Source: Bryobacterales bacterium (GTDB taxonomy: Bacteria; Acidobacteriota; Terriglobia; Bryobacterales; UBA6623). From it: a DNA stretch of 64,000 nt. Location: NCBI GenBank assembly GCA_965206775.1, contig CBDBKU010000002.1:2182898-2246897 (forward strand). Direction: 5' to 3'. A program made the translations under genes and the position numbers. Of this stretch, positions 7,900 to 59,554 are shown in pieces (positions within the stretch are counted from its first letter, which is position 1; each line of letters begins with the position of its first letter). The notes beneath the pieces are model-generated. The model worked only from the letters and a program-made list of their open reading frames with translations. It was not told where the DNA came from and made no database searches.

Positions 7900-8061
7900 T
7901 AAACGTGGCTCGCCTCCTGCAGTGATCCGAGCCCTTCAGCCAGCTCGAAACGCTCCGCCCCTAAGTGGATGAGCTTGCGGGGAATCTTTGGGGCCCCGGG
8001 GAGCGTACCTGCAGCCCCGTCCCGGAAACGATGCAATTCACCGCAGTTGGCGGGACGAATC

Positions 8062-9890
8062 GTAACTGCCCAGGTAGTCTTCAGATACAGGAGCCCCAAT
8101 CGATTGGATGAATAGAGGGGCTCACTTGGAGTGCGGTCCGCTCAGCATGCGTGCATCCGAACCGGGTGTAGTGTGGCGGCTAGGGTTCCACCCTCGCCAG
8201 CAGAGCGGCCGGCCCTTGCAACAAGGCCTCAACGCGGTTCAAGCCCTGCTTGCGCGCCGTCGAGAGCACACTACGCAGCGTGGCGAAGTCCTGCGCACCC
8301 TGCTCGGAGCGGAACCCGCCCGAGATCTTCATCCGCAGCTTCATCATCCGCAAATCCTGTTCGGCTTGGTTGTTCGTGAACGGCACCCTCTCGTCCCTGA
8401 GAAATCGCAACACCGACTCCCGCCTGTCCCTCAGCCGCAACGCCAGATTATGTCCCGGCCGACGCTTCTTGCGGCCCCGCCGTCCCGGCTTGGCCGGCCG
8501 CAACGGCTCCAACCTCTCGTGATACGCCAACGCCTCCCGCACCAACTCGTCGTAACGCCGCTCGATCCTCTCCAGTAGCAACCGCGGCAACGCCACCCCC
8601 CGCTCCCGCACGCTGTCCACCGCCCGCTTCGCCCGCCTCAGCAACTGCTGCATCCGCCGCGCCCAGTCTTCCCCGTCGATCTTCGCCAACGCCTCTAGCT
8701 CCCGCAAGTGGTGAATGTTACACAGCGCGTGCAGCACTCCCGGCACCTTGAAATACGAGGCCCAGTGGTCATGCACCAAGATGCCTCGCAACCCCTCCAA
8801 CACGCCACCCCGCTGGCGGCTTGTCCGGTAGTAGGTCAGCTTCGCCGTGCTCAGCACGTGCAACCACTGCCCCTGGCCCGCAATCCGGAATCCCGTCTCG
8901 TCCAGATGCTTCACCCCGCTCGCGCTTACCAGCTGATCCCGTACCCGCTCGCTCCAACTCCGCCAGATCTGCGCTGCCTTGCGGCTCATCCCCGCCAGCG
9001 TCGCCGCGCACAATGCCACCCCGAACAGGTCCCGGAAGATCTCCGCCAGTCGATCCTCGGGCAGGCAATGGGCGTTCTGCAAGTACACCGCGGTGGCCGC
9101 GATCCGCGGCCCGTACTGCACCGGCGCGCTCACTCCCTCCGGGAACGCGGCCCGCGTCAGCTGTCCGCACTGCTGGCAACGACAGCCCCAGGCCTGGTGC
9201 TCGGTCACCTCCGGCGCTGTCGGTGCGGGCAGATCATAGACCTGCCGACGCTGGGGCTCGCCCTCCACGTCGGCCGCCGACAGGGCCGCTCCGCACTCGC
9301 GGCAGCCTGACGGCAGGTGGACCTGGGTCCGCTCCGGTGTGTCCGTCTGGCTCAGCGTCGCGCCCTTGTGACCGGGCTGCCCACCCGAGCGCTTGCCGGA
9401 CCGACGACGCTGGCTGCGCGTCCGTTGCGCTGCCGCTGGCTTGGCCGGCCCATCGCTCGAGGGTGGTTTCCCGCTGTTGCTGCTGTCGAGGCCCAACCGC
9501 CGTTGCAATGCCTGCACTTGCTCTTGCAACGACTGCAACTGCCTCGTCAACTCCTCATGGAGGGCCTGCAACCGGGCGTTTTCGGCTCGCAACTGCGCGT
9601 TTTCGGCCTCCAATTGCGCCAGACGCTCGTGCCAGTCCACCGCACGTGGCTCGCTGTTGGCTCGCTCCACCTTCATCCCGCTGACGCCGGCACTGCTCGT
9701 CGCGAGCGCATCGGCTTGCCCACAACGGTCCGGAGGCCCAGAACATTACTATTGCTAACTGGTTTCCCAGCGGAAAGTCAAGTGCTGCCGAATTCTGGCC
9801 ATCCCGGTGAGCGGTTCCCGTGGAACCATCCGGCCTCCCCCTTTTCAGTACGCATCACCCGCGTATGAGTGGGGGTACCTGGGCAGTTAC
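8062..9890 (-). mobile_element. IS66-family insertion sequence, copy 1 (single-ORF type)
   Basis: Terminal IRs GTAACTGCCCAGGTA (8062..) / TACCTGGGCAGTTAC (..9890). Perfect 8-bp direct repeat GACGAATC at 8054..8061 and 9891..9898. Confidence 0.9.
8180..9676 (-). CDS. IS66-family transposase
   Basis: N-terminal leucine-zipper heptads. Cys pairs CRECGAAL...CRCQQCG. HLDETGFRIAGQGQWLHVLST; LCNIHHLRELEAL; VPFTNNQAEQDLRMMKLRMKISGGFRS. Confidence 0.9.
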   Translation of the reverse strand: MKVERANSEPRAVDWHERLAQLEAENAQLRAENARLQALHEELTRQLQSLQEQVQALQRRLGLDSSNSGKPPSSDGPAKPAAAQRTRSQRRRSGKRSGGQPGHKGATLSQTDTPERTQVHLPSGCRECGAALSAADVEGEPQRRQVYDLPAPTAPEVTEHQAWGCRCQQCGQLTRAAFPEGVSAPVQYGPRIAATAVYLQNAHCLPEDRLAEIFRDLFGVALCAATLAGMSRKAAQIWRSWSERVRDQLVSASGVKHLDETGFRIAGQGQWLHVLSTAKLTYYRTSRQRGGVLEGLRGILVHDHWASYFKVPGVLHALCNIHHLRELEALAKIDGEDWARRMQQLLRRAKRAVDSVRERGVALPRLLLERIERRYDELVREALAYHERLEPLRPAKPGRRGRKKRRPGHNLALRLRDRRESVLRFLRDERVPFTNNQAEQDLRMMKLRMKISGGFRSEQGAQDFATLRSVLSTARKQGLNRVEALLQGPAALLARVEP

Positions 9891-9898
9891 GACGAATC

Positions 9899-24090: not shown

Positions 24091-24640
24091 GTGAGAACCG
24101 TTTGGAGCACCCAAGGAATCCTCGGCCAAGTCGCCATCGAAGACATCGAGTTCGACCCGAGATCGCGCGACGATATTCCGGCAGTTCTCAAGGGAATCCA
24201 GTTCATCCATTCCAGCGACGAACTGCGCGCCAAGGTCTTCGACCTGCTCGAGAGCCATCTGCTGGCCGGAGCGGATGCCGAGGACGTTCCGGACGATGCC
24301 GAGGACGATACGCCGGACGGAAGGATCGATGCCGGGGTCGGACGGCCGGGCATGCAGCTGTGGAACATTCTCGTACTGGGTCTGTTGAAGCAGGGCCTGA
24401 ATTGCGATTACGACCGCCTGCATGAACTGGCTTGCAAGCACGCGGACGTGCGCCGCATGCTGGGATGCAGCGACATCTGCGGAGAGCCGGGCTTCTCCCA
24501 TCGCACGCTGGTGCGGAATGTGGCGCTGCTGACGCCGGAGCTGCTGGGGGCAGTGAACCGGCTGGTAGTGGAGGCGGGGCATGAGCTGGCAGGGCACGAT
24601 GGGGCGGGACAGCTGCAAGCGAGATGCGACTCGGTGGTGG
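24091..24640 (+). pseudogene. IS5/ISNCY-like DDE transposase, 5' part
   Basis: IEDIEFDPRSRDDIPAVLKGIQFIH...GRPGMQLWNILVLGLLKQGLNCDYDRLHELA...QARCDSVVV, then runs into inserted DNA. Confidence 0.7.
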
Positions 24641-24649
24641 TAGTGAAGG

Positions 24650-24665
24650 CATCAGACTGCTCCTT
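24650..24665 (-). promoter_or_regulatory. orphan SD (AAGGAG) + ATG at the element's left end; becomes the 5' end of the DUF5372-like ORF only when the element ends are joined
   Basis: Minus strand: AAGGAGcagtctgATGCCTTCACTA | element boundary. Joined to 27894 this reads in frame into CCACCAAGAGCAGAT... Confidence 0.6.
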
Positions 24666-25249
24666 CTATTGAATCACGTTTCTCCAATACCCGTCCATCC
24701 CATGCAACTCATTGATGTAGAGGATGTTACGAGCGTTTGAACGGTAATGCGGCCGATGTCGCCGGATGGGCCGACATCGTGCGAAACACCATCCAGGTCC
24801 GTTTCCGGGACACTTCGGCTTTCTCCCGCCTGAGCCCCCTGTCATCGCTCCACTCTCGTCGCGGAACGGGCCAGGCTGGAAGCGTTGCAGGAAGCGGTCC
24901 GGACTGCGGAGCGAGACATCGCGTCGCTGGAAGCGCTGTCGGCCAGGTCGGAGCAACGCGTCAGCCCGGACCGGTCCGGAGCGCCAGGCCTGCGGACAGG
25001 CAACGCCATTCGATGGGTCATCGCAACCCGTCTCCTGGCATGGCGTTACCCGGCCTCGCCCGGGCGCCGGCGCGCCTGTCCGGCCCGGTAGCGGGCGATG
25101 TCCGGTTCCGGGATCACAGAGTGGCGCACCATCCGAACGACCGCATTCCAAGGCCTTGCGCTTGCGCGTCGAACTTCGCCGCCTCGTCTCTCCTCGTGTT
25201 GACGCCGCGTGACTCCAGCCGCCGACTCCCCGATCTGTTCCGAGCCGGT

Positions 25250-27439
25250 TCACGTTCCCGCCCCCCAGTCCAGCAAGCGCTGCCGATCCCAATCCCGCTT
25301 CACGTACAGGCCCTTGTGCGTGCCGCGCACGATGCGCTTGGCATCCAAGGCCCCCTCGCGAATGCGTTGCCACAGGGCCTGTCGCGACAGGCCCAGCTCG
25401 CGCCGCGCTTGCTTCGCCCGCACATACCCCTCCGGCGGCGACTCGCAGAACCGCGCCCGCACTGCCGGGCTCAGACGCACCTGCAGGGCGGCGCCCTCCA
25501 CCGCTGCCTCCGCAGGCACGAAGCCCTGCTGGATCCAGCGATAGAGCGTGCTCGCCGTCGTGCCCAGCTCCCGCGCCGCCTCGCTGACGCTCTGCGGCGG
25601 CGCCTCTGCCTGCCGCTTCCCGCCCCGCAAGAGCTTGATGCCGTGACGCTGCCGCAGGCTTGCCACGATCCCCCGGCTGAATTCCATCCCGCGCGCCGAC
25701 CGCAGCCCCTGCCGGTTCAGCGTCTCCGCGATCCGCTCGTCCGCGTGCAGCAGCGCCAGCCCCCGCACGATCTCCACCGTGGCGGGGTCGTCTTGTATCG
25801 GCGGCGGCGTCACGCGCGCAGGCAAGGGCAGGTCGGTCTCGTCGATCCAGCCGCCGCGCCAGCGCAGCAGCACATGCAAATGGCCCGCTGCCCGCTCCAC
25901 CTTCAGCACGACCTCTTCCACCAGCGCCGCCAGCAGCCGCTTGCGATCCCGCGCACTGACTCGAGGCGATTCCCACAGACTGCGCACCCGCGCCCCCAAC
26001 TGCGCGAACACCTCCCCGGACACTTCCGGGTCACGCCGCGGCTCGCGCTCCGCGGCCTGTTCCAACTCCCGCTGCGCCCGCTCGACCTCGCGCAACGCCG
26101 CTTCCCAGTCCCGCGCTAGCGTCCGCGTGACCAAGCGGTTCTCCGGATCCTCCGCCTTGTACCTCCTCTCGGCCAGCTGCGCTGCGTACGCGCAGCGCTC
26201 CAATTCCAGCTCGTAGCTGCGCAATCGCCTCGCTTCCCGCTCCTCCGCCTGCCGCTCCGCTCGCAGCGCCGCCTCGACGCCGCCCATGCCCGCCGCTTCC
26301 AGAAACCGCTCCGAGACCCACCGTTCCAGCTGCGCTCCGCCGACCGACTGGCACCCGCGCTTCCCCGTCCCGGACTGACTTGCCAGACACACGTATCTCA
26401 CCCCGCTGCCGTACAGCACCTGCATCCGCCGACCGCACACCCCGCACGCCACCAGCCGTTGCAGCAGCGCCCTCCCCTCGCGCGGCGCTCCGCTCCCCAC
26501 GCGCAACGAATTCTCCGCCATGCGCTCCTGGATCTCCAGCCATTCATGCCACTCGACATAGCCCTCGTGATGCTTCTCCAGCACCACCGTCCACTCCTGC
26601 CTCGGCAACCTCAGCACCTTCTTGCTCACCTCCCCCCGCCCGTCCACCCGCAACTCCGTCCGCTGCCGCTGGTACACGTACGCCCCTCCCATCAGCGGGT
26701 TCGTCAGCACTTGGTACACCCGCGCGTAGGTCGCCTCGCTCCACTCCATCTCCCTGTTTCCGCGCTTCCCCGGCAGCTTCGTCCCCGCCTCCCGCAGCTT
26801 GCGCACCGTCTGCCGCGCCGAACCCGTCTCATGGAATTTCGCGAACACCTCCGCGATCGCCTGCCGCACCTGCTCGTCGGGGTCCTTGCGCAACTCCGTG
26901 CCGACCACCACGTACCCGCTCGCCACGCTCCGATACAACTCGCCACGCTCCGCCTTGCTCCGCAGGCCCTCGTCCATGCGCGCCTTGATCCGGAACCGCT
27001 CCTCCTCCGACAACGTCCCCTCGATCCCCAGCACCACCCGGTGGTCGCCCTCCCTCAAGTCGTACACCTTGCCCGCCTTGACGAACAGCGTGTCGGTCAG
27101 CCGCAGCCAGCGCAACAAGCCGAACCATTCCGCCGTGTCGCGCGCCAAGCGCGACGAATCCAGGCCCAGCACCACCCCCACCCGTCCCCGCGCCACCAGC
27201 CGCGTCAGCTTCGCGAAGCCCGTCCGCTCCGTATCCCCCGCCGCCGAAACCCCCAGGTCGTCGTCGATCACCTCGACCCGCTCCGCCGGCCAGCCCAGAT
27301 TCCGCGCCACTTCCCGCAATCCATACTGCAGCCGCGTCGATTCCCGGTTCGTCAGCACCTGCTGCGGCGTCGATTGGCGCACATAGACCACCGCCAGCCG
27401 CTCAAGATGCCGTTCGCGGATCGTCGTCTCCCGCTTCAT
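25250..27439 (-). CDS. large serine recombinase with two extra C-terminal HTH (MerR/excisionase-like) segments
   Basis: LAVVYVRQSTPQQV (catalytic Ser region), GLDSSRLARD, recombinase and zinc-ribbon (CGVCGRRM...YVC) regions, coiled coil. C-terminus has ARELGTTASTLYRWIQQG and ARRELGLSRQALWQRIREG. Confidence 0.85.
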   Translation of the reverse strand: MKRETTIRERHLERLAVVYVRQSTPQQVLTNRESTRLQYGLREVARNLGWPAERVEVIDDDLGVSAAGDTERTGFAKLTRLVARGRVGVVLGLDSSRLARDTAEWFGLLRWLRLTDTLFVKAGKVYDLREGDHRVVLGIEGTLSEEERFRIKARMDEGLRSKAERGELYRSVASGYVVVGTELRKDPDEQVRQAIAEVFAKFHETGSARQTVRKLREAGTKLPGKRGNREMEWSEATYARVYQVLTNPLMGGAYVYQRQRTELRVDGRGEVSKKVLRLPRQEWTVVLEKHHEGYVEWHEWLEIQERMAENSLRVGSGAPREGRALLQRLVACGVCGRRMQVLYGSGVRYVCLASQSGTGKRGCQSVGGAQLERWVSERFLEAAGMGGVEAALRAERQAEEREARRLRSYELELERCAYAAQLAERRYKAEDPENRLVTRTLARDWEAALREVERAQRELEQAAEREPRRDPEVSGEVFAQLGARVRSLWESPRVSARDRKRLLAALVEEVVLKVERAAGHLHVLLRWRGGWIDETDLPLPARVTPPPIQDDPATVEIVRGLALLHADERIAETLNRQGLRSARGMEFSRGIVASLRQRHGIKLLRGGKRQAEAPPQSVSEAARELGTTASTLYRWIQQGFVPAEAAVEGAALQVRLSPAVRARFCESPPEGYVRAKQARRELGLSRQALWQRIREGALDAKRIVRGTHKGLYVKRDWDRQRLLDWGAGT

Positions 27440-27605
27440 TCCGGGCCTCCTTCTCCGCGATCCGCAGCATCAGCCGCGCCAGCTCTTCCAGCAGTTCCTC
27501 GTGCGCCGCCTCCGGAAAGCTGTTCCACAGCGCCAGACGCTCCTCGTGTTCCAGCAGCCCCGGCAGAGACGCCTGCCAGTTCGCCGCTCCCTCCTTCTCC
27601 GCCAT
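27402..27605 (-). CDS. small helical protein of the recombinase operon (unknown function)
   Basis: MAEKEGAANWQASLPGLLEHEERLALWNSFPEAAHEELLEELARLMLRI... This frame has much higher third-position GC than the overlapping continuation of the upstream ORF. Overlaps the annotated recombinase ATG by 38 nt. Confidence 0.5.
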   Translation of the reverse strand: MAEKEGAANWQASLPGLLEHEERLALWNSFPEAAHEELLEELARLMLRIAEKEARNEAGDDDPRTAS

Positions 27606-27609
27606 GCGC

Positions 27610-27846
27610 GTCCTCCAGCACCTGCACCAGTTTCTGCAAGGCATGATAGTCCGCCATGCGGCCCTGCGTGCGCGGCGCATCGTCCGCAGGAGCCTCCCAG
27701 CTGGTCCACGCCGCAGGGATGCTCTTGCGCTTGCCATCGGGCAGTTCGACCCACAACGCCAGACTACCGTCCGAGCGCCGTTTCCGAGCCAGCACCGCCA
27801 GCTCCTGACCGTCGAGGGGGTGTCCGAGGCGCTTGATCAGAACCCG
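27610..27846 (-). CDS. Y4bD/Y4pK (DUF5372)-like small protein; no start codon inside the integrated element
   Basis: RVLIKRLGHPLDGQELAVLARKRRSDGSLALWVELPDGKRKSIPAAWTSWEAPADD resembles the 'THPFHPL.G...iP..WT' small proteins found next to serine recombinases (from memory). High GC3. 3' end unclear. Confidence 0.5.
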
Positions 27847-27894
27847 CTCAGGCCCGCAATCGCGGAATGGATTAGTTTGATCTGCTCTTGGTGG

Positions 27895-28838
27895 AAACGG
27901 ATGTACATTACCCGACGGACGTGAGCCTGCTGTGGGATGCGTTGCGCTGCCTGATCCGGGTGGTGGCAGCGGTATGCCAGCGCAGCAACGTGGGGGGATG
28001 GCGTCAGGCAAGGCATTTGAGTCTGCGGGCGAGGGGGCTGTTCAACCGGGTGCGGTCCTCGCGGCAGCGAAGCAGGAAAGGGACGGGAGCGCAGCGAGTG
28101 AGGAGGTACCTGCAATTCGCAGGGGAGATCGCAGGGAGAGCGGAGGGGACGCTGGAAGAGTTGGGAGGGAAGGGTGCGACGGAGGCAGAGATCCAAGAGA
28201 TACAGTGGTTCCTGGACTTGGTGAATCGATTGGCGGACCAGGTTAAGCGGCGAGTACTGGAAGGAGAGAGGATCGCGCAAGAAGAGAAGATCTACTCGAT
28301 CTACGAGCCGCATACGCGATGGTGCTCGAAGGGGAAGGCCGGGAAAGCGGTGGAGCTGGGAGTGCCGGTGAGCGTGGTGGAGAGCGAGCATCAATTCGTG
28401 ATGCATTACAAGGTGATGTGGAGCGAGCAGGACGTGGATGTGGCACCGTCCATGATCGAGGAAACGCAGGAGTTGCATCCGGGCCTGACGGGATGCAGCT
28501 TTGACAAGGGGTACTCCAGTCCGGGGAACCGGACGCGGTTAGACGGGATGCTGGACTTGAACGCAATGCCGAAGAAAGGGAAGCTGGCGAAGGCGGACAA
28601 GGAGCGGGAGACAGCGCCGGAGTTCGTGGAGGCAAGGCGGGCGCACGCGGCGGTGGAGTCGGCGATCAACAACCTGGAGCAGCGGGGGTTCGACCGGATA
28701 CTGGCGCACGGGGCGGATGGGTTCGAGCGCATGGTGGGACTATCGGTACTGGCAGCGAACATACACCGGATCGGGACGATACTGCAACGGAGAGAGCGGG
28801 AGAAGCTGAAGGGCCTGCGCCTGCCGCTGGCGGCATAG
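27895..28838 (+). pseudogene. IS5/ISNCY-like DDE transposase, 3' part
   Basis: ETDVHYPTDVSLLWDALRCL...IYSIYEPHTRWCSKGKAGKAVELG...CSFDKGYSS...RRAHAAVESAINNLEQRGFDR. Confidence 0.75.
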
Positions 28839-38359: not shown

Positions 38360-40188
38360 GTAACTGCCCAGGTACACGGCTTCGGTTGAGTTGCGACGAC
38401 GAGGGCGGCGGGCAGTGGGGCATAGGTAGCGGAACAGAACAGGCGGACAGGGGCCGGGGATGGCGGCGATTGGCAAGCGATAGTGGAAGAGTCCGGCGGC
38501 GAGCATGATTGTGGGCAGACCGATCGTGTCGGCACGCAGTTTACACAGACAGACAAAACATGTATATATAAGAATGTTGCAAGCGCACAGGCGCTGGCGA
38601 GAGCATGCCGGGACAGTCCGAGGCAGAGCGGCGACAGGCGGGCGGGGACGTGCGCCTGGAGGACTTGCAAGCCGAGAACGAGCAGCTGCGGGCCACCCTC
38701 GAGCGCAAGGAGGCGGAGATTGCCGGCTTGCGGCAGCGCCTGGAGGAACTGGAGCGCCGAGTGGGGCTGAACAGCAGCAACAGCGGCAAGCCGCCGTCGA
38801 GCGACGGGCCAGCCAAGCCGCCGGCGCAGCAGCGCACGAAGAGCCAGCGGGGCCGCTCCGGCAAGCGCTCGGGCGGGCAGCGGGGACACACAAGGGCTCG
38901 ACCTTGCGCCAGACAGACAGCCCGGATCGGATCCAGACCCACCTGCCGCCGAGTTGTGACGCGTGCTCGGCGCCGCTGGCGGCGGCCGACACGCAGGGCG
39001 AGCCCCTGCGGCGGCAGGTGTTCGACCTGCCCGCGCCCCAGCCTCCGGTGGTGACCGAGCATCAGGCGTTTGCCTGCCGCTGCGGATCCTGTGGCCGTGT
39101 GACGCGGGCGGCGTTCCCGGAAGGGGTGGGTGCGCCCGTGCAGTACGGCCCGCGGATCGCCGCCGTCGCGGTCTACCTGCAAAACGGGCACTTCCTGCCC
39201 GAAGAGCGCTTGGCAGAGGTCTTCCAGGACCTGTGCGGGGTCGCGGTTTGCTCCGCGACACTGGCGGGGATGACGCGCAAGGCGGCGGAGCGCTGGCGGA
39301 GCTGCAGCGAGCGCGTACGCGACATGATCGTGAGCCTGGACGGGGCGAAGCATCTGGACGAGACGGGCTTCCGGATCGGGGGGAAGACGCAGTGGCTGCA
39401 TGTGATCAGCACGCGCTGGCTGACGTTCTACCGCACAAGCCCGCGGCGGGGCAGCCTGCTGGAGGGCCTGCGGGGCATTCTGGTGCACGATCACTGGAAG
39501 CCGTACTTCACCGTCCGGGACGTGCTGCACAGCCTGTGCAATGCGCATCATTTGCGAGAACTGCAAGCGCTAGTCGAGATCGACAGGGAGGACTGGGCGC
39601 GACGGATGCAGCTGTTGCTCAGACGGGCGAACCGGGCGGTGAGGATGGCTCTCGAGCGGGGTGTTCCGCTGCCGCGGGCGCTGGTGGAGCAGATTCAGCG
39701 CCGCTACGACCAGTGGGTCGGGGAAGCGCTGGCTTATCACGAGGCGCAGCCGCCGCTGCGACCGCCGCAGAAAGGTCGGCGGGGGCGCAAGAAGCGTCGG
39801 CCGGGACACAATCTCGCGTTGCGGCTGCGGGACCGCAAGCAAGACGTGCTGCGCTTCGTCAGCGATCCCGGTGTCCCCTTCACCAACAACCAGGCGGAGC
39901 AGGACCTGCGGATGATGAAGCTGCGCATGAAGATCTCCGGCGGGTTCCGGTCCGAGCAGGGAGCGCAGGATTTCGCCACGTTGCGCAGCGTGCTCTCGAC
40001 CGCGCGGAAGCAAGGCCGCAACCGCATCGAGGCCCTCTTGCAAGGGCCGGAGGTCCTGCTCGCAGGACTGAAATTCTAGCTGCCGCCCCGAGTCCCGATC
40101 GTCCGCCCCGGACTGCACCTTGTCAAGGCCGACGCACGCTCCACTCATCTAGTACTTGCGCAGGTCATCGGACCTACCTGGGCAGTTA
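38360..40188 (+). mobile_element. IS66-family insertion sequence, copy 3 (diverged from copies 1 and 2)
   Basis: IRs GTAACTGCCCAGGTA / TACCTGGGCAGTTAC. Perfect 8-bp direct repeat CTTTGTTT at 38352..38359 and 40189..40196. Confidence 0.9.
38605..40079 (+). pseudogene. IS66-family transposase with a 2-nt frameshift in a (CA)n run at 38886..38893
   Basis: ORF 38605..39054 carries the zipper and ...KRSGGQRGH. The remainder (KGSTLRQTDSPDRIQTHLPPSCDACS...DETGFRIGGKTQWLHV...) is in the frame of ORF 38505..40079. Copies 1 and 2 read GGQPGHKGATLSQTD across this point. Confidence 0.85.
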
Positions 40189-47358: not shown

Positions 47359-47758
47359 CTATTAGTGCCTGTTAGCCTTTGATACCCACTATACTTCAAT
47401 TGCAATTTCGAGTCAACTGCCGAATGGGTTGCAGGAGCCTGGGCAGCGGAGCCGGCTGGATGGATGGACAGGTCGGGCAGGTAGGGAACGACTTGGGAGA
47501 ACTGCGGGCGAGGGTTTCGGCGAGATTGGCCAGGAGAAGCCGCATAACTGTATATGGTTATTAATGAGTGACTTATATTGAATAGATGCACGGCTTGGGC
47601 CCGTGTGGACGGGAATCGCTGGCAAGGCCCGCGGGAACTCCCGGCCTGCCGTGGGCGAGGCGCTGACGCCACCGATCCAGAAGGCCGCCTGTTCCGGGCG
47701 GTGTGTCCTATAATTTCATGGACACACATTGGAAATCAAATGAAAACAATCACAAATA

Positions 47759-49608
47759 GTAACTGCCCAGGTACTCTTCAGATACAGGAGCCCCAATCGA
47801 TTGGATGAATAGAGGGGCTCACTTGGAGTGCGGTCCGCTCAGCATGCGTGCATCCGAACCGGGTGGAGTGTGGCGGCTAGGCTCCCACCCTCGCCAGCAG
47901 AGCGGCCGGCCCTTGCAACAAGGCCTCGATGCGGTTCAGGCCCTGCTTGCGCGCCGTCGACAGCACACTACGCAGCGTGGCGAAGTCCTGCGCACCCTGC
48001 TCGGAGCGGAACCCGCCCGAGATCTTCATCCGCAGCTTCATCATCCGCAAATCCTGTTCGGCCTGGTTGTTCGTGAACGGCACCCTCTCGTCCCTGAGAA
48101 ATCGCAACACCGACTCCCGCCTGTCCCTCAGCCGCAACGCCAGATTATGTCCCGGCCGACGCTTCTTGCGGCCCCGCCGTCCCGGCTTGGCCGGCCGCAA
48201 CGGCTCCAACCCCTCGTGATACGCCAACGCCTCCCGCACCAACTTGTCGTAACGCCGCTCGATCCTCTCCAGTAGCGATCGCGGCAGCGCCACCCCCCGC
48301 TCCCGCACGATGTCCACCGCCTGCTTCGCCCGCCGCAGCAACTGCTGCATCCGCCGCGCCCAGTCTTCCCCGTCGATCTTCGCCAACGCCTCCAGTTCCC
48401 GTAAATGGTGAATGTTACACAGCGCGTGCAGCACTCCCGGCACCTTGAAATACGAGGCCCAGTGGTCATGCACCAGGATGCCTCGCAACCCCTCCAGCAC
48501 GCCACCCCGCTGGCGGCTCGTCCGGTAGTGGGTCAGCTGCGCCGTGCTCAGCACGTGCAACCACTGCCCCTGGCCCGCAATCCGGAATCCCGTCTCGTCC
48601 AGATGCTTCACTCCGCTGGCGCTTACCAGCAGCTCCCGGACCCGCTCGGTCCAACTCCGCCAGACCTGCGCTGCCTTGCGGCTCATCCCCGCCAGCGTCG
48701 CCGCGCACAAGGCCACCCCGAACAGGTCCCGGAAGATCTCCGCCAGTCGATCCTCGGGCAGGAAATGGGCGTTCTGCAAGTACACCGCCGTGGCCGCGAT
48801 CCGCGGCCCGTACTGCACCGGCGCGGTCACGCCCTCCGGGAACGCGGCCCGCGTCAGCTGTCCGCACTGCTGGCAACGACAGCCCCAGGCCTGGTGCTCG
48901 GTCACCTCCGGCGGTGTCGGTGCGGGCAGATCATAGACCTGCCGACGCTGGGGCTCGCCCTCCACGTCGGCCGCCGACAGGGCCGCTCCGCACTCGCGGC
49001 AACCGGACGGCAGGTGGACCTGGGTCCGGTCCGGTGTGTCGGTCTGGCTCAGCGTCGCGCCCTTGTGACCGGGCTGCCCACCCGAGCGCTTGCCGGACCG
49101 CCGACGCTGGCTGCGCGTCCGTTTCGCTGCCGCTGGCTTGGCCGGCCCATCGCTCGACGGTGGTTTCCCGCTGTTGCTGCTGTCGAGGCCCAATCGCCGT
49201 TGCAATGCCTGCACTTGCTCTCGCAACGACTGCAACTGCCTCGTCAACTCCTCATGGAGGGCCTGCAACCGGGCGTTTTCGGCCTCCAACTGAGTGTTCT
49301 TGGCCTCCAACTGCGCATTCTTGGCCTCCAATTGCGCATTCTTGGCCTCCAATTGCGCCTGACGCGGCTCGCTGTTCGCTCGCTCCATCTTCATCCCGCT
49401 GACGCCGGTACTGCTCGTCGCGAGCGCATCGGCTTGCTCACAACGGTCCGGATGCCCACAACATTACTATTGCTAACTGGTTTCCCAGCGGAAAGTCAAG
49501 TGCTGCGGAATTCTGGCCATCCCGGTGAGCGGTTCCCGTGGAACCATCCGGCCTCCCCCCTTTTCAGTACGCATCACCCGAGTACGAGTGGGGGTACCTG
49601 GGCAGTTA
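47759..49608 (-). mobile_element. IS66-family insertion sequence, copy 2
   Basis: IRs GTAACTGCCCAGGTAC / GTACCTGGGCAGTTAC. Perfect 8-bp direct repeat CACAAATA at 47751..47758 and 49609..49616. Confidence 0.9.
47877..49394 (-). CDS. IS66-family transposase (near-identical to copy 1 apart from an expanded heptad array)
   Basis: QAQLEAKNAQLEAKNAQLEAKNTQLEAENARLQ..., then colinear with 8180..9676. Confidence 0.9.
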   Translation of the reverse strand: MKMERANSEPRQAQLEAKNAQLEAKNAQLEAKNTQLEAENARLQALHEELTRQLQSLREQVQALQRRLGLDSSNSGKPPSSDGPAKPAAAKRTRSQRRRSGKRSGGQPGHKGATLSQTDTPDRTQVHLPSGCRECGAALSAADVEGEPQRRQVYDLPAPTPPEVTEHQAWGCRCQQCGQLTRAAFPEGVTAPVQYGPRIAATAVYLQNAHFLPEDRLAEIFRDLFGVALCAATLAGMSRKAAQVWRSWTERVRELLVSASGVKHLDETGFRIAGQGQWLHVLSTAQLTHYRTSRQRGGVLEGLRGILVHDHWASYFKVPGVLHALCNIHHLRELEALAKIDGEDWARRMQQLLRRAKQAVDIVRERGVALPRSLLERIERRYDKLVREALAYHEGLEPLRPAKPGRRGRKKRRPGHNLALRLRDRRESVLRFLRDERVPFTNNQAEQDLRMMKLRMKISGGFRSEQGAQDFATLRSVLSTARKQGLNRIEALLQGPAALLARVGA

Positions 49609-50012
49609 CCACAAATACGTGATTCCAATCACGGAAACACCCTGGAACGAATAGACTTTGAGCCCAGGAGGTCCCCGATCTCTCACATCAGGAACTTAGT
49701 TGGGTATCGAGGCTAGCAGACTTGGAAGTCGGTCCTCCGCGTCCGGACCGTTCTGCACGTAGCAGTACAGCTCCTCGCGGAACACCCGGTTCTGGTGGGA
49801 TGGGTGGCTGGCGCTGTCGTGGGACCCCTGGGACTCGGTCACGCTCGTGCAAAGCGACACCCTGTTGGCGGGAATGTAAGACTGCACACTCGTGGGCATC
49901 GGAAATGGCGCACCTGAGGGCCGGCGCGGACCGCGAGTTCTGAGCCGGATTGGGAGCGGGGAAGTGGGAGGATCAGGGCATCCTAGCGACATCACTCAAC
50001 AAGGGGGGCGCA

Positions 50013-53773: not shown

Positions 53774-53971
53774 CTAGCGTGTTGGGGAGCGGCGGAGCAG
53801 GTCGTTCCAGTCCTTGGCGCCGACGGGACGGAGGCGGCTGAAGTGGGGGGAGTGGAGTCGGATGGCGTTGGCAGCGAGGTCGCCGGCGGGATCGGCGTCG
53901 TAGGCGCAGATGGTCTGGGGAGGGTGGAAGGGCTGCAGCCAGCGGGGGAGAGCGGAAGCGACGCCGGCGGT
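53774..53971 (-). pseudogene. 3' fragment of a Toprim gene (diverged paralogue of 55434..56186), truncated by the IS21 left end
   Basis: ..LPRWLQPFHPPQTICAYDADPAGDLAANAIRLHSPHFSRLRPVGAKDWNDLL aligns with the C-terminus of the 250-aa Toprim protein. Homology stops at 53971/53972. Confidence 0.65.
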
Positions 53972-54074
53972 TGTCCAGCGACAATTAAAAATTCCGGGTA
54001 GCGACAACTAAAAGTTCCGGGTGAGCCTCGTAGTTGGCGGCTAGACTCGACCCTTCCTCGGGAGGGTTGAGGCG

Positions 54075-55244
54075 TTGATCAAAGACCAACAAGTGAGGCT
54101 ACTGATGAAGGAACTCAGAAGGAACAAGCCGCTGGCAACGGCGGCGGCGAAAGCGGGCATGAGCGAGCGCACGGCCCGCAAATGGCGCGATAGCGGGAAG
54201 CTTCCGAGCGATCCCAGGCCAGCACGGCACTGGCGGACGCGGGAGGATCCGTTGGAAGCGCTGTGGCCAGAGGCGGAGGCACTGCTGCGAGCGGACCCGG
54301 GATTGCAGGCGAAGGTGGTGTTTGAGGAGCTGCTGCGGCGCCATCCGGGGCAATTGCAGCCCGGGCAGTTGCGGACGTTGCAGCGACGATTCCGGGCCTG
54401 GCGCGTGCGGCAGGGTCCGGACAGGGAAGTCTATTTCGAGCAGGAGCGGGAGCCGGGGGCGCAGTGCCAGTCGGACTTCACCGACATGGGCGGGCTGGGA
54501 GTGACGATCCGGGGCGAGCCGTACAAGCACCTGGTATACCGTTTCGTGCTGCCGTACTCGAACTGGGAGAGCGTGGCGATCGCGAGTTCGGAAACGTTCG
54601 AGGCGCTGGTCGGAGGACTGCAGGAGAGCCTGTGGGAACTGGGCGGGGTGCCCCGGGAGCACCGGACCGATAATCTGTCGGCGGCGACGCACGAGTTGCG
54701 CCAGTCCGGCGGGCGGGCGTTCAACCAGGCGTACGAGGAGTTTCTGGCGCATTACGGGCTGGAGGCGAGCCGGAACTATCCGGGGAACGCGCACGAGAAC
54801 GGGGACGTGGAAGCGGCGCACGGGCATTTCAAGACCGCGGTGGACCAGCGGCTGCGCCTGAGCGGGACACGGGATTTCGGCTCCGTGGAGCGCTACTCGC
54901 GGTTGCTGGACGAGATCGCCGGGCAGCGCAACAGTCGGCGCGGGGAGCGGCTGGCGGCGGAGCAGGCGGCGTTGCGGCCGCTGCCGCCGCGACGGCTGCC
55001 GGTGTACCGGGAAGAGCGGCGCACGGTGACGCGCGGGAGCGTGGTGCGGGTGGCGAGCAAGGCGTACTCGGTGCCGTCGCGGCTGATCGGGGAGAAGCTG
55101 ACGGCGCGGCTGTACGCGGATCGCGTCGAATTGCGCTATGGCGGGGAACTGGTGGCGCGCCACGACCGGGCGCTGGGCAAGCAGCTGGGCCGGGTGGACT
55201 ACCGGCACGTGGCGCACGCGCTGTTGCGCAAGCCGGGGTGTTGA
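54075..55244 (+). pseudogene. istA: IS21-family IstA transposase, 5' part (388 codons)
   Basis: HTH (AAKAGMSERTARKWR), catalytic region (QCQSDFTDMG...HLVYRFVLPYSNWE...REHRTDNLSAAT...NAHENGDVE), ...VDYRHVAHALLRKPG, then the TGTTGAATCCCG end of the inserted element. Confidence 0.8.
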
Positions 55245-55433
55245 ATCCCGCAGTATTCCGGCGGCAGATTTTCAGATTGTTCCGGCGGCAGGAGGGGGAG
55301 TTTTTCCGGATTGTTTGTGATGTGTGACAGGTAGGAAGGGTCCTGTCGACAGGGGGTTTGACGGCAGAGTCGGGGCGTTTGCGGGGAGGCCGGAACGGTG
55401 GCGATGGTGCGTTTGGTCCGGGCTGGATGGGTG

Positions 55434-56186
55434 CTAGCAGGGAGCGAGCAGTTGCAACAGGTCGTTCCAATCCTTGGCGCCGTGGGGGCGCAGGCGGTGC
55501 AGGCGGGGATGCTGGCGGCGCAGGGCGCGGGCGGCCTGGTCGCCAGCGGGATCGGCGTCGTAGCCGCACAGCAGGGGGAGGTGCTGGAAGGCGTGGAGCC
55601 AGCGGGGCAGGCGGCGGGCGGTGCCGGCGGTGGAAGCGACGAGGCAGTCGGGGGGCAGGTCGGGGGCGGGCAGCAAGACGGCGGAGAGGGCATCGACGGC
55701 ACTCTCGGTGAGCAGGACGGCGGCGGGCGGGGCGGACCCGGTGGTCAGCCAGAAGCCGCCACGGTCGCGGCGGGAGCCGGGGGCGAGCCCCTTGAAGGTG
55801 GAGGAGTCGGGGAGCGGGCGGGTGCCGACGAGTTCGGCGCCGACGGTCGCGGAGGAGCGGTCGCGGCAGGTGAAGACGGCATTGCGGCGGCGGTCGGCGT
55901 AGAGCGTGCCGGCGTGGAGGTGTTGTTCCAGCAGGGCGGGGTCGAGGCCGCGGAGCCGTACCAGGAAGTCGCGCACGGGCGGCCAGTGGGCCGCGACGGG
56001 AGCGGGCAGGCACAGCGCGGCAGGGGACGGATGCGGGGCGGCCGGGGGTAGCGGCGGGCCGTCAGCGAGGAAGGCGACCGCCTCGCGGAAGCCGCAGCGA
56101 CGGGCGTGCATGACCAGATCGATCGCGCCGCCGCCGCCGTGGCCGCCGGCGTGATCGAAGAACTGGGTGCCGCGGATGCTGAGCAC
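55434..56186 (-). CDS. DUF3991/Toprim-domain protein (left arm, intact)
   Basis: GGGGAIDLVMHARRCGFREAVAFL; Toprim Glu (VLLTESAVDALSAV) and DxD (LLCGYDADPAGDQAA). GTG start assumed. Confidence 0.7.
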   Translation of the reverse strand: MLSIRGTQFFDHAGGHGGGGAIDLVMHARRCGFREAVAFLADGPPLPPAAPHPSPAALCLPAPVAAHWPPVRDFLVRLRGLDPALLEQHLHAGTLYADRRRNAVFTCRDRSSATVGAELVGTRPLPDSSTFKGLAPGSRRDRGGFWLTTGSAPPAAVLLTESAVDALSAVLLPAPDLPPDCLVASTAGTARRLPRWLHAFQHLPLLCGYDADPAGDQAARALRRQHPRLHRLRPHGAKDWNDLLQLLAPC

Positions 56187-56264
56187 CGAGCCGTCCCGCC
56201 GCCAGCGTTGGCGATGGCGCGGATCGCGCTGGTAGCCGAGCCGCTCGGCGAGCGGCTCGAGGGG

Positions 56265-57062
56265 TCACGGACGCAGTTCCTCGCAGGCGCGGCGGACGTG
56301 CTCGGCGCTGACCGTGCGGGCCTGCTCGAGGGCAGCCGCCGCCAGCGCGTAATGGGCCAGCGCGCTGACCTGGCGGGGCAGGCCGTGGGAGGCCTGGAAC
56401 AGCGCCTGGCAGGCGGCGGGCTCGAACAGGTCCAGCTCGCAGCCGGCCCGGGCGAGAGCGTGCCGCAGGTAGGGCTCGAGTTCCTCGCGGCGCAGGCCGT
56501 TGAGGTGGTAGCGCATCACGATGCGCTGGGTCAGGGCCTCGTGATGGGCCAGTCCCAGCCGCCGCCGCAACTCGCTCTGGCCGATCAGCAGCAGGCACAG
56601 CAGGCGCCGCGAGTCGAGGCCGAAGTTGACCAGCAAGCGGAGTTCGTCGAGCACGTCGTGGCGCAGGTACTGGGCCTCGTCGATGATCAGCAGGGGGAGC
56701 TTCCCGGCCTCGCTGAGGCGCTCGACTTCGTGCCGGATCAGTTGGCAGGCCGGAGCGCGGTAGCGCGGCGTTTCCAGCCCCAGGGCCCAGCCGATCGCCT
56801 GATAGGTGTCGATCACCGTGCCGGTCGTGAGTCGCACATAGCCCACGCTGTAGAGGCTGTCATGGAGGTTGTCGGCGAAGCGGCGGCAGGCGCTGGTCTT
56901 GCCGCAGCCGGGCTCGCCGGTGAGCAGGCCGATCCCGCGCAAGTCGAGCAAGTGCCGCAGGCGGGAGTCGGTTTCGGTCGCGTCCTCGGAGGCGAACAGC
57001 TCGGAGCTGCGGGCGGGGGATTCGAAGGGCAGGCAGGCGAGGCCGAAATGCTGGCGGTACAT
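56265..57062 (-). CDS. ExeA/TniB-like AAA+ ATPase (left arm, intact)
   Basis: MYRQHFGLACLPFESPARSSELF...GIGLLTGEPGCGKTSACR (Walker A)...LPLLIIDEAQYL (Walker B). Its ATG overlaps the upstream stop (TGATG). Confidence 0.8.
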   Translation of the reverse strand: MYRQHFGLACLPFESPARSSELFASEDATETDSRLRHLLDLRGIGLLTGEPGCGKTSACRRFADNLHDSLYSVGYVRLTTGTVIDTYQAIGWALGLETPRYRAPACQLIRHEVERLSEAGKLPLLIIDEAQYLRHDVLDELRLLVNFGLDSRRLLCLLLIGQSELRRRLGLAHHEALTQRIVMRYHLNGLRREELEPYLRHALARAGCELDLFEPAACQALFQASHGLPRQVSALAHYALAAAALEQARTVSAEHVRRACEELRP

Positions 57063-57511
57063 CAGGGTTGCTCCCGGGAGTCGGATGGCTGGGAGGCCAG
57101 CTGGCGCAACCGGAGCTGCTGCCTGGCCGGGGAGCGGGGCTGGGCGGAGGTCTCGGGCCGGGCGGGAGTCTTCGGCTGGTCCGCAGCGGGCGGCCGACTG
57201 CGTCGCGCGCGGGCGTTGGCCTCCAAATCGACCCGGGTCGCCTGGCTGGTTTCGCCGTCCTCGTGCAGGACCGTCAGGGCCCGCTCGGGGGGCGCGTCGG
57301 GCTCGACCACCAAGGTGACCTTCCGGCCGTCCAGGCCGGCCACGGTCTCGTACTGGAGGCCCCGCAGGTTGACCGTGCGGGCGCGGCTGACGCGGCGCAC
57401 GAAGCGGTAGCTGAAGATCCACCCCAGGTCGATGTCGGGTCCGGCATAGCGCACGTTGTCACTGACCCGTGCCAGGCGGTCCAGAGGCGTTTCGCCGTCG
57501 AGGCCGCAGTG
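57062..57511 (-). pseudogene. 3' end (~150 codons) of a Mu/Tn552-type DDE transposase (left arm)
   Basis: HCGLDGETPLDRLARVSDNVRYAGPDIDLGWIFSYRFVRRVSRARTVNLRGLQYETVAGLDGRKVTLVVEPDAP.. resembles the Mu-transposase C-terminal domain. No catalytic part is present. Confidence 0.6.
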
Positions 57512-57615
57512 GGGCGCATGGTGACATGTTGCGGTGCGGGGAATGTTGCGATGCGCCGGAATGCGCTTGTCTCTCAGCGGTGAACCCGGACTCTCCGCAA
57601 CATTCCTTTCTGCGC

Positions 57616-58611
57616 TCAGAGTGACCGGAGGAACGCCATCACCCCTCGATCCTCCTTCCACGGCCGCGTCGGTCCCTCCTCGACCGCATCGCAGAGTGCC
57701 ATCGCCCGCGCCTTCATCTCGAGGTCGATCTCGGCGTAGATGTTGGTTGTATCGAGACTGACATGGCCGAGCCAGGCACGTATGGTATTGAGATCGACTC
57801 CGGCGCGTACGAGGCTGCAAGCAGCCGTGTGTCGAAGCACATGCGGGGTTGTCGTCTTCCCGGACAGTTCCGGCACTGCCGCTGCACAGCGCTCGACCAC
57901 GCGATAGATGCCGAAGCGGGTATAGGCCCTGCCGTAGCGGCTGGAGAACACGGGGTCGCCGTTTGAGCGCCCTGCTGTCTGTTCCGCCACCACCCGTTCG
58001 GTTTCCTTCCACAGCGGGCATTGGCGGACTTTGCCGCCCTTGCCATGGAGAGTGGCAAGGGCAGAGCCTCCGTTTCTTTGGCTGAACGCAATGTCGGCGA
58101 TCCGGAGCCCGGAGGCCTCCGAGACGCGGGCACCGGTGTTCACGAGGAAGATCAGGATGGCGTGTTCGGTGCGGCCCCTTGGCGTTTTCCTGTCGGGGGC
58201 GGCAAGGAGGGCGTCCGTCTCCGCCCGGGTCAGCCAGGCGACCGGCTTCGGCGCTGCCCGCTTCACCGGGATGGCGCGGATGTGGCCGCACCAGGCGACC
58301 AGGGCGGGGTCGCGGCTGGCCACGAAGCGGGCGAAGGCGCGAACGGCGGTCAGGCGCCGGTTCCGGGTCTCCACGGAGCAGCCACGCTCCGTCTCGACAT
58401 GGTCGAGGAAGGCGCGCAGCCTTTCGGCGGTGAGATCGTCGATGACCAGCCGGTCGATCGGTTTCCGGGCTCCTGCGCTGATGAATGGCAGCAAGAGGGT
58501 GAACGTATCCCGATAGCTCTGTCGGGTGTTCTCCGCCAGGTTCCGTTCACTGACGATGTGCTCTTCGAGGTAGCGCCGGAGCCACGCCCCCATTGTCCTG
58601 CAATCACGCAT
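57616..58611 (-). CDS. tyrosine recombinase, third gene of the RIT trio
   Basis: LVNTGARVSEASGLR (Arg), TPHVLRHTAACSLV (HxxR), WLGHVSLDTTNIYAEI (His, Tyr). Confidence 0.85.
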   Translation of the reverse strand: MRDCRTMGAWLRRYLEEHIVSERNLAENTRQSYRDTFTLLLPFISAGARKPIDRLVIDDLTAERLRAFLDHVETERGCSVETRNRRLTAVRAFARFVASRDPALVAWCGHIRAIPVKRAAPKPVAWLTRAETDALLAAPDRKTPRGRTEHAILIFLVNTGARVSEASGLRIADIAFSQRNGGSALATLHGKGGKVRQCPLWKETERVVAEQTAGRSNGDPVFSSRYGRAYTRFGIYRVVERCAAAVPELSGKTTTPHVLRHTAACSLVRAGVDLNTIRAWLGHVSLDTTNIYAEIDLEMKARAMALCDAVEEGPTRPWKEDRGVMAFLRSL

Positions 58612-59554
58612 CTTGATCTCCCTTCATGTAGTGTTCATAGCGGAGCGATGCCTGAACGAGCCTTTCCGGGGTCATGCTCAGGTAGACTTGGGTTCCGGCC
58701 GGGTTCCTGTGACCGAGGTCGGTGGAGAGCACCGGCAACAGTCGCTGCACGTCGGCGCCCTGCCGGTACCAGGCGTTCAGCCGTCCGACGGCGAATCCGT
58801 GCCGGAACGAATGCAGGCAGGGACCCCGGCACCTGCTGTCCCCGCCGCCGATCCCGGCATCGCGGAGCAGCTTGGCGAAGACATTCCTGACGACTCCCGC
58901 CAACAGGGGTGTTCCGTCACGGTTCGCGAGGAAGGCCGAATCCCGTCCCTCCGGCTGCGGGCGCCGCAGGCGCCTGGCGGCGTGGTCGCGCAACACATGG
59001 GCGAGCCGTTCCCCGACCGGAACCAGGCGCGACTTGTAGAACTTCGAATCGCGAACGGTGAGCACCGCGTCATCAAGGTCGACATCCGCGAGCGTCAGTC
59101 GGAGCGCTTCGCCGCTGCGCAGTCCGGATCCGTGCAGCAGCAGGATCAAGGTCCTTAGGGTGTCGCCGTCCAGTTGCCTTGCACGGGCGCGGGAGGCTGC
59201 GGTCGAGCCGAGAAGACGCCGAACTTCGTCCCCAGTGTAAATGTAGGGCGGCAGGGGCGCCGATGCCCTCGGCTCGCTCTCCCGTTCGGGCAGCGGAAAC
59301 CGGGTCGCGTGGCCGCGACTGATGGCAAAGCGGTACAATCCAGACAGAGCAGTGTACTTGGCATTCCGATAGCTGGTCGGCGGTCGGGTCCCTGCGAGGA
59401 AGGTACGGACCGCGTCCCTCGTGACCGCATCGCAGGGGGCATCCGCATCGACCCCCTTCAGGAACCGACGCAGTATCCTGGCACCGTCATCGAACTTCGT
59501 GCCGTGGGATCGCCGCCAGAGGATGTACGTGTCGATGGCCTCGCCCAGAGTCAT
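58604..59554 (-). CDS. tyrosine recombinase, second gene of the RIT trio
   Basis: MTLGEAIDTYILWRRSHG...; LLHGSGLRSGEAL; CLHSFRHGFAV; DLGHRNPAGTQVYLSM. ATGA overlap with the upstream gene and an 8-nt overlap with the downstream gene. Confidence 0.85.
   Translation of the reverse strand: MTLGEAIDTYILWRRSHGTKFDDGARILRRFLKGVDADAPCDAVTRDAVRTFLAGTRPPTSYRNAKYTALSGLYRFAISRGHATRFPLPERESEPRASAPLPPYIYTGDEVRRLLGSTAASRARARQLDGDTLRTLILLLHGSGLRSGEALRLTLADVDLDDAVLTVRDSKFYKSRLVPVGERLAHVLRDHAARRLRRPQPEGRDSAFLANRDGTPLLAGVVRNVFAKLLRDAGIGGGDSRCRGPCLHSFRHGFAVGRLNAWYRQGADVQRLLPVLSTDLGHRNPAGTQVYLSMTPERLVQASLRYEHYMKGDQDA

Follow-up and report, generated by a model that had tools for sequence, protein, structure and literature searches.

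Integration of a serine-recombinase element separates the first gene of its operon from its start codon, and joining of the element ends restores the reading frame

The element, its boundaries and the divided first gene

The stretch analysed here, termed the window, comprises 64,000 nucleotides of contig CBDBKU010000002.1 from the Bryobacterales bacterium assembly GCA_965206775.1. It harbours an integrated element that encodes a large serine recombinase (LSR) and occupies positions 24638..27892 with a short core at both ends. The genes of the element are located on the minus strand, antisense to the transposase gene of the insertion sequence (IS) in which it resides. The first gene of its operon, orfA, is present in two pieces. 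The body of orfA (27436..27888, minus strand), as defined by sequence and Pfam match, consists of a DUF5372 domain and a non-conserved tail and is startless ahead of the conserved block. Its Shine-Dalgarno (SD) sequence AAGGAG (24665..24660, minus strand) sits apart from it at the opposite end, 3' of the LSR gene. It is followed, after a gap of 7 nt, by the start codon ATG (24652..24650), which together with CCT TCA CT and the adjoining core provides the first 4 2/3 codons (24642..24652, minus strand).

The interrupted host gene encodes a DDE_Tnp_1 transposase on the plus strand. Its upstream part with the N-terminal half (24091..24637) and its downstream part with the DDE_Tnp_1 domain (27893..28838) are cut apart by the insertion, and removal of the element yields an open frame of ~500 codons with the DDE_Tnp_1 domain. 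The uninterrupted host IS is found among the Logan contigs from nine runs (eight of DNA type, one labelled as RNA), where 24637 is joined directly to 27889 and 3251 bases are skipped. This empty site reads ..GACTCGGTGGTGGTGGAAACGG.. and translates into D S V V V E T D V H Y. Four letters, TGGT, can be assigned to either side of the empty-site joint. They define the core at the low-coordinate junction (24638..24641; TGGT on the plus and ACCA on the minus strand), which holds the crossover dinucleotide, and at the high-coordinate junction (27889..27892; TGGT on the plus strand). The unique length of the element is 3251 bp, not 3254 bp. Contigs that carry the element break precisely at 24639 and 27892.

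One contig leads from the element into another flank, ..CTGCGATAGTTTCGC followed at the junction by GGTAGTG.., which is the homologous position in another, diverged member of this IS family. This second insertion site has only GGT in common with the first, which narrows the core to GGT. The insertion is conservative and without target-site duplication, and the short core (TGGT/GGT) is common to both junctions. Since the second flank lies in a diverged IS copy, the element is multi-copy. A second left flank, ..GCGATAGTTTCGC followed by GGTAGTG, is seen in each DNA-type run that contains the element at a high word share (X1-X8). In runs X4 and X8, the depth of element contigs is ~370-430 compared to ~115-140 for the host IS flank, i.e. 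roughly 3x. Several element copies per genome or community are implied. Elsewhere in the 64-kb window, neither a second copy of the element nor an intact host IS is present. The window contains further repeats (8055..9897, 38728..40084, 47752..49616 and 53798..63329), both long direct and inverted, with 72-98% identity, so that the region resembles a nest of ISs.

When the two ends are joined, the minus strand reads AAGGAGcagtctgATG CCT TCA CTA CCA AGA GCA GAT CAA ACT AAT... and keeps ACCA, not CCACCA. The predicted joint sequence of the window element includes ...GTCTGATGCCTTCACTACCAAGAGCAGATCAAAC.... The resulting ORF (open reading frame) comprises 155 aa with the N-terminus MPSLPRADQTNPF... 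/ MPSLPRADQTNPFRDCGPERVLIKRLGHPL..., is in frame with DUF5372, and its stop codon overlaps the LSR start codon (ATGA). The crossover falls within codons 5-6 of orfA; that is, the attachment site attP lies inside the coding sequence of the element.

The DUF5372 frame contains no ATG, GTG or TTG on the minus strand from the boundary through the RVLIKRLGHPL block, and the first in-frame start past the boundary is a GTG located 3' of this block. In the close relatives P0001 and P0002, gene callers pick the downstream GTG, which results in the N-termini MLARKRR... and MLSRKRR.... A start 3' of the RVLIKRLGHPL block would cut the domain, because the PF17342 profile begins at about IKRLGH. Into the host flank the frame is open for 65 codons, and the nearest in-frame start is a TTG 55 codons upstream that is not preceded by an SD sequence. 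For the window copy alone the 19 startless codons are unremarkable, as their chance probability is ~0.4. Because a startless run expected in ~40% of cases by chance and a one-in-three match of the frames are weak, a comparative test was needed.

An earlier note, made from the letters of this DNA, had proposed that the first ORF of the recombinase operon is complete only when the element is circular. Its description of the DUF5372 ORF as startless between boundary and conserved block, and of AAGGAG, 7 nt and ATG at the opposite end, holds in the window sequence, and the uninterrupted host IS that it suggested searching for was found in the nine runs named above. The note had predicted an in-frame joint that retains TGGTGG. 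The frame was right, and the retained letters were not: the empty-site contigs leave one CCA, i.e. one proline, fewer. The rebuilding of the first ORF by end joining stands with the corrected ends.

Start signals, joints and targets among relatives

A scan guided by a profile and covering one genome per species yielded 80 loci with a related LSR (L numbers below), which span Acidobacteriota, Alpha-, Gamma- and Deltaproteobacteria, Actinomycetota, Planctomycetota and others; LSR homologues number in the thousands. Carriers include Mesorhizobium tianshanense NBRC 102499 (L032), Bradyrhizobium sp. 143 (L034), Variovorax sp. WS11 (L066) and Cystobacter fuscus Cbf 10 (L077). A single-sequence search with the joined protein, which is word-limited, recovered only 2 relatives, and a profile query 685 DUF5372 relatives. 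The homologue P0146 is named 'Y4bD/Y4pK family protein' by NCBI. A DUF5372-like ORF is located directly 5' of the LSR gene at 72 of the 80 loci. At 42 of these 72, the stretch from the upstream stop codon to the conserved block is free of ATG, GTG and TTG, and at 53 the last 20 codons are startless (likewise in 49 of 65 distinct leaders). An ordinary gene would be expected to possess a start codon at each locus. The leader peptide ..R-H/Q-T-T/N-H/P.. is kept up to the point where copies diverge, which is the element boundary. Judged by these frames, conventional translation of orfA in integrated copies would usually be impossible. Among the plasmid hits, 23 of 25 have no annotated feature under the DUF5372 match, a figure that lends weak support, as the gene table excludes pseudogenes.

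The missing start is found at the other end. In nearly all members, an SD-like sequence (GGGGG, GGAGG or AAGGAG) followed by GCA(G/T)T and ATG, sometimes GTG, is located 3' of the LSR stop codon, and the similarity between copies ends ~14-16 nt past this far-end start codon. A crossover ~14-16 nt after the A of the ATG also applies to L082, L165/166, L001, L002 and the clade that targets group II introns. The far-end motif follows the LSR stop codon after 6-20 nt in most members and after 150-1300 nt in some clades: the distance is 587 nt in the window, 1297 nt in L082, 677 nt in L001, 665 nt in L002, 320 nt in L005 and L057, 170 nt in L006, 750 nt in L010, and 596 nt in L020 and L022.

Both ends could be fixed at ~28 loci, and 27 of the 28 joins are in frame, the exception being L018. 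These loci share ancestry and are, thus, not independent trials; the frame and the SD-start combination persist across deep divergence, different targets and whole-codon insertions or deletions. In the clade of the window, L082 (LSR 70% identical to that of the window) adjoins an IS21-type element, has the core GAAAG and yields the joint MQSRLKAVQTNPVHG..., whereas L165 and L166 (70% and 65% identical) reside in an IS3-type element, have the core AGCGA and yield MDSQA(R/K)VNQTDPVR.... A 3-nt indel, placed between the ATG and the conserved CAG(A/T)TCAAAC, distinguishes the window from L082. The right end of L001 was fixed via a second copy, L013, and gives (V)KTNRSEPLQTTPF. Shared cores give MKRSCSEGRHTTPF for L002 / L003, MKPSSPRTSQTT for L006 and MPKFPQRSHDT for L010, a shared 8-mer gives MDESRTSLPTTP for L005, and L020, L022 and L057 join in frame at shared cores as well. 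The longest shared k-mers initially taken as cores of L001, L020 and L057 were spurious and were replaced by hand or via a second copy. L004, L008 and L009 were left out, as their right-end candidates are doubtful.

In the group II intron clade, joining of the flanks results in an uninterrupted reverse transcriptase (RT) frame with the motif D.D[IL]...F|D.[IL].H, and the crossover is AA (the TT of the Phe codon), common to both junctions. Removal of the element restores the group II intron RT frame at 16 loci, and the geometry that restores the host frame also sets the far-end start in frame with orfA. This applies to L017, L021, L068, L023, L024, L026, L027/28 and L029 as well as to L036, L038, L039 (with a 9-nt insertion), L046, L047, L049, L051 and L054. 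The rebuilt host protein of L046 comprises RVT_1 and GIIM. A right end of L021/L068 at 7913, where no SD-ATG is present, was considered and rejected: the element actually ends 6 nt past the LSR stop codon, and the DNA shared further on belongs to the group II intron. At the level of sequence, a junction-dependent signal, i.e. a far-end SD and ATG in frame with the near-end orfA, is therefore present in the window and ~27 relatives.

Wherever the target could be resolved (the group II intron RT clade, the IS of the window, L165/L166), members of the family sit in other mobile elements, antisense to the target gene. The targets of the window clade are a DDE_Tnp_1 IS (two diverged copies, homologous site), an IS3-type element and a position next to the end of an IS21-type element. 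Insertions in mobile elements were noted for L017, L021, L023, L024, L026, L036, L038, L039, L046, L049, L051, L054, L068, L161, L162 and L167. On the classical Pseudomonas putida TOL plasmids pWW53 (L167, 73898-83170) and pDK1 (NC_014124.1), the element is located inside a group II intron RT gene; there, the LSR gene, frameshifted in pWW53, is annotated as two ORFs, and the DUF5372 stretch carries no annotation. This copy joins in frame, too (MQDPRKPRQTTPLHD).

Joined ends are present in public DNA. Metagenome contigs of JGI were scanned for a pattern in which the far-end motif precedes the leader motif by 21-27 nt. Of 78 pattern hits, 75 are due to chance and three encode DUF5372 directly after the ATG (L139, L089 and L096); with L164 and L163, five public contigs with a joint are available. 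L139 is a 2854-bp contig with an exact terminal overlap of 127 bp, so that the assembly path is a circle of 2727 bp. Its order is LSR residues 200-736, stop codon, 13 nt with GGGGG, ATG AAG CCG TAT CCA AGA AAA CCA CCA CAC ACT ACC..., orfB (see below) and LSR residues 1-238. L089 and L096 lead from the LSR C-terminus over the joint into DUF5372. L164, found via joint-type N-termini of database proteins, is a 3211-bp contig with both a joint and an attR junction to a group II intron RT flank. L163, the end of a 142-kb long-read contig, comprises a partial 3' copy, a joint and a full copy, i.e. a tandem. The ORFs across these joints are unbroken and encode 165-175 aa. Hence, the rejoined gene exists in nature for relatives of the window element.

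These results allow the remaining proposals of the earlier note to be judged. End joining rebuilds the first ORF in dozens of diverged relatives as well as in the window, and joint contigs include one circle. Other copies were examined for joins out of frame, and wherever the ends are fixed the joins are in frame, except in L018. The search for joint DNA succeeded for relatives and yielded nothing among the contigs for the window's own copy. The statement that the gene is complete only when circular is too strict for relatives with a GTG in the host flank (see below) or with a tandem joint (L163).

Operon genes, a candidate switch and alternatives

The orfA product matches Pfam PF17342 (DUF5372) with 32.8 bits at a cut-off of 25, residues 25-89 being aligned with profile positions 6-73 of 78. 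The LSR gene (25250..27439, minus strand) is intact and encodes 729 aa with Resolvase, Recombinase and Zn ribbon domains and a C-terminal extension. Scores are 62 bits for PF00239, 65 bits for PF07508 and 24.1 bits for PF13408, the latter just below the cut-off of 25.3. The motif R21-Q22-S23 is invariant across 32 homologues. The best NCBIfam matches of the LSR, XisF and Ccr, are weak, and neither orfA nor orfB has a match in NCBIfam. The C-terminal extension reaches ~250 aa past the usual coiled-coil (25250..25900, minus strand); within it, an HTH_17/MerR/excisionase-like helix-turn-helix occupies residues 617-643, and a similar stretch follows at ~680-705. In several runs, contigs jump from 25878 to 27224 (1345 nt within the LSR gene) or from 26259 to 27528 with AGAACAG in between; these joins could be deletion derivatives or related elements with common words.

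A third gene, orfB (27402..27605, minus strand), has its own SD (GGAGG), encodes a helical protein of 67 aa and is nested, in a different reading frame, within the 3' half of the orfA frame. Its protein is conserved in ORFs of 62 loci (jackhmmer), whereas the tail in the orfA frame is not conserved as a protein. At L081 and L082, orfB is called as a gene. In the window, the orfA stop codon TGA overlaps the LSR start codon (ATGA, 27439..27436), and the same overlap is found at 54 of 72 loci as ATGA and at 10 of 72 as GTGA, together at 64 of 72. Because the tail is open up to this overlap though it is unconserved, ribosome run-on from orfA to the LSR start appears to be under selection. The arrangement suggests translational coupling between orfA and LSR, with orfB overprinted within the orfA tail.

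The spacer between the LSR stop codon and the far-end SD and ATG (24653..25249, minus strand; 597 nt) contains no convincing ORF and no sigma-70 match, and no Rfam family is matched in the element or its spacer. Its length within the window clade is 360-1300 nt. A block GCACGATGT (24774..24782, minus strand) is invariant in the four clade members window, L082, L165 and L166, and a second block, GTT(A/G)C(A/G)T at ~24700..24730 (minus strand), ~55 nt before the far-end ATG, is kept in the same four; the other spacer sequence is unalignable. Both blocks may be promoter or accessory binding sites. The spacer may hold the promoter, as the earlier note proposed. In most relatives, any promoter of a joint transcript must sit inside the LSR gene, because the spacer is only 6-20 nt long; such a promoter would point outward when the element is integrated. 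The spacer of L082 (7219-7722) contains an extra ORF of 167 aa with repeated Cys-rich motifs (C..W/E..C......RGLC..H) that may be cargo.

An AlphaFold2 model of DUF5372 (47-sequence alignment, mean pLDDT 77) shows a small four-stranded beta-barrel followed by a long helix. Foldseek matches of this model are Tudor/KOW/SH3-like and weak (E ~0.01, TM 0.4), too weak to assign a function. DUF5372 may be an accessory factor of the LSR. As it would be made only after excision, an aid in integration or target capture or a block of re-excision is more likely than a classical excision factor.

We consider it highly probable that the 3251-bp element is a cut-and-paste LSR element with its attP inside orfA, which integration splits and excision rejoins, and from which we infer an expression switch. 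The split of the first gene recurs across a large family, and an on/off switch set by the integration state is probable. According to this proposal, orfA (DUF5372), orfB (67-aa helical protein) and LSR would form one operon. Integration would split orfA such that SD, ATG and the first 4 2/3 codons are left at the far end, 3' of the LSR gene and facing outward, and the remaining orfA, devoid of a ribosome-binding site and a start codon, would lead the operon at the opposite end. Excision as a circle or formation of a head-to-tail tandem would restore the 155-aa orfA, and its ORF would be translated. Transcription from the far end would lie upstream of the operon only in the joint. Operon output, including LSR synthesis coupled to the joint ORF, would be high in the excised form and promote re-integration, and lower once integrated, which would result in a stable insertion.

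Several observations weigh against this proposal. The LSR gene has its own SD, GAAGGAGG, 6 nt 5' of its ATG, so that LSR translation need not depend on orfA. Between 24400 and 28200 no sigma-70-like promoter was detected (the promoter type of the organism may differ), and no terminator was found in the element. In the contigs of 9 runs (8 DNA-type, 1 RNA-labelled), no circle or tandem joint of the window's own element was found; as contigs lose rare variants, this is not evidence of absence. The RNA-labelled runs yielded no element contigs, and run X15 contains the uninterrupted host IS only. The one join out of frame, L018, has a leader that lacks the conserved motif. Furthermore, the codons of leader and far end double as the presumed LSR-binding arms of attP, and some host flanks supply a start codon. 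Each of the last two points leads to an alternative.

If the leader were non-coding, DUF5372 would start at an internal or non-canonical codon, and the in-frame join would be a by-product of the DNA constraint on the attP arms. The arms are conserved even at third codon positions (CACACTACCCA), which suggests that conservation is partly at the DNA and not at the protein level. The P arm resembles the target sequence, and gene callers use the internal GTG in relatives. We regard this alternative as improbable: an internal start would lose the most conserved block of the domain, with which the Pfam profile begins. A properly spaced canonical SD precedes the far-end start in nearly all members, though its sequence varies. 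Moreover, the frame is held across whole-codon indels with only one deviating join, and the ORFs in the joint contigs are uninterrupted over 165-175 aa.

A similarly small chance is given to the view that the joint form is a lasting state, either a small episome or a chromosomal tandem, and the normal site of action of the complete operon. The 2727-bp circle of L139 was assembled as a separate contig, the tandem joint of L163 is part of a 142-kb long-read contig, and L164 has joint and attR on one contig. However, there is no replication gene, compact members consist of orfA, orfB and LSR only, and the vast majority of copies are single integrated insertions.

The last alternative concerns expression in the integrated state. 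Many DUF5372 proteins in databases begin with M/V-E-[SC]-[CN]-[RQ]-R... just before the leader motif. N-termini of the M-E-S-C type were considered as joints, and this was rejected for two of them, L161 and L162, which are integrated copies with a GTG in the host flank. This GTG is in frame, lies five codons before the crossover and is the antisense of RT I-P-H codons (ATT CCA CAY). It stands in the same register as the far-end ATG, as a comparison of the P arm ATGGAACACGATCCAA with the target arm GTGGAATCGTGTCGAA reveals (L161:3990-4020 and L162:2412-2440 versus L161:6728-6750). Since a host flank may supply an in-frame GTG, completeness in the circle only is not strictly true of all insertions. 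That the operon is expressed mainly when integrated, by a host-flank start, a fusion or read-through transcription, the joint being incidental, would fit these flank codons, the many database proteins that start at them and the window frame, which is open for 65 codons into the flank and has a TTG 55 codons upstream, but is the least probable of the three, as flank-supplied starts have no usable SD, 42 of 72 loci lack any in-frame start, the antisense orientation in each resolved target means that host promoters do not read into the operon, and flanks vary with the target while the far-end SD-ATG is conserved.

Compared with the splitting of orfA by integration, a broader proposal is less secure, and we give it even chances: that these elements belong to a class of minimal LSR elements, widespread and so far undescribed, which are 2.7-4 kb long, have the order orfA(DUF5372)-orfB-LSR and are parasites of mobile elements with ring-closed genes and a target-mimicking attP arm. 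As parasites, they would home in antisense orientation into the conserved catalytic-motif codons of group II intron RTs, i.e. those of the motif given above, as well as into ISs (DDE_Tnp_1, IS3, IS21 ends). In the circle, the genes would form a closed ring with a gap between LSR stop and orfA ATG of down to 13 nt; integration would cut this ring in orfA, so that DNA topology acts as the switch. The target mimicry of the attP arm would extend to the register of the start codon.

The split has consequences for regulation and annotation. DNA topology, circle versus integrated, would decide whether the first gene has any translation start, which goes beyond the known joint promoters. As DUF5372 is startless in most integrated copies, annotation pipelines truncate the gene, fuse it to the flank or skip it, and the true N-terminus of DUF5372 has probably never yet been annotated. 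These compact LSRs form a large family whose attP geometry is known and whose natural targets lie in conserved motifs of group II introns and ISs, and they may serve as a source of recombinase tools. The family is also of interest for the ecology of mobile elements living as parasites of others. For DUF5372, a lead is provided: it is suggested to be an accessory factor that only the excised form produces.

Comparison with known systems

Both the split architecture and the association of DUF5372 with an LSR emerged from this analysis. In the literature searched, DUF5372 is not mentioned, with no function or context described for the family, and nothing relevant was found on LSR insertion into group II intron RT genes or on LSR elements with such a split. 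An assignment to the IS607 type was rejected: the LSR comprises 729 aa with the catalytic domain at the N-terminus, the IS607 model scores 16.5 bits versus a cut-off of 110, and tnpB is absent.

In Tn4451/Tn4453, the circle joint forms the promoter of tnpX, the gene of the large resolvase TnpX (Lyras and Rood 2000, as cited in PMC13023037). Like Tn4451, the present LSR element would be excised as a circle, a form seen in relatives, and expression of the recombinase would be tied to the joined ends. However, a promoter is assembled in Tn4451, whereas here the SD, the start codon and the first codons of a coding sequence are rejoined. Furthermore, the split gene is the upstream accessory ORF (DUF5372) and not the recombinase gene, and the LSR does not resemble TnpX in sequence beyond the general family.

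Archaeal integrases of the SSV1 type carry attP within int, so that integration splits the gene (PMC8371274). In both cases, the recombination site is located within a coding sequence of the element, and the gene is whole only as a free circle. In contrast to the tyrosine recombinases of archaeal viruses and plasmids, the enzyme here is a bacterial serine LSR. In the SSV1 type, the recombinase gene itself is split, near the middle or in the N-terminal part; here, the LSR gene remains intact and the first gene of the operon loses its head.

Junction promoters are also formed by elements of the IS3, IS30 and IS21 types. Circle-dependent promoters have been described for the integrative and conjugative elements (ICEs) ICEclc (Pcirc) and ICEKp1 (P3'end) (PMC13023037), and circle junctions for IS110/IS1111 (PMC11187229). 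The element analysed here resembles these systems in that a signal at one end would reach the recombinase operon through the joint only when the element is excised or in tandem, and would be shut off by integration. It differs from them in two respects: the ICE and IS circle promoters are transcriptional switches, whereas here a translation start is split from its ORF, and compact members leave a gap of only 13 nt between the LSR stop codon and the orfA ATG in the closed circle.

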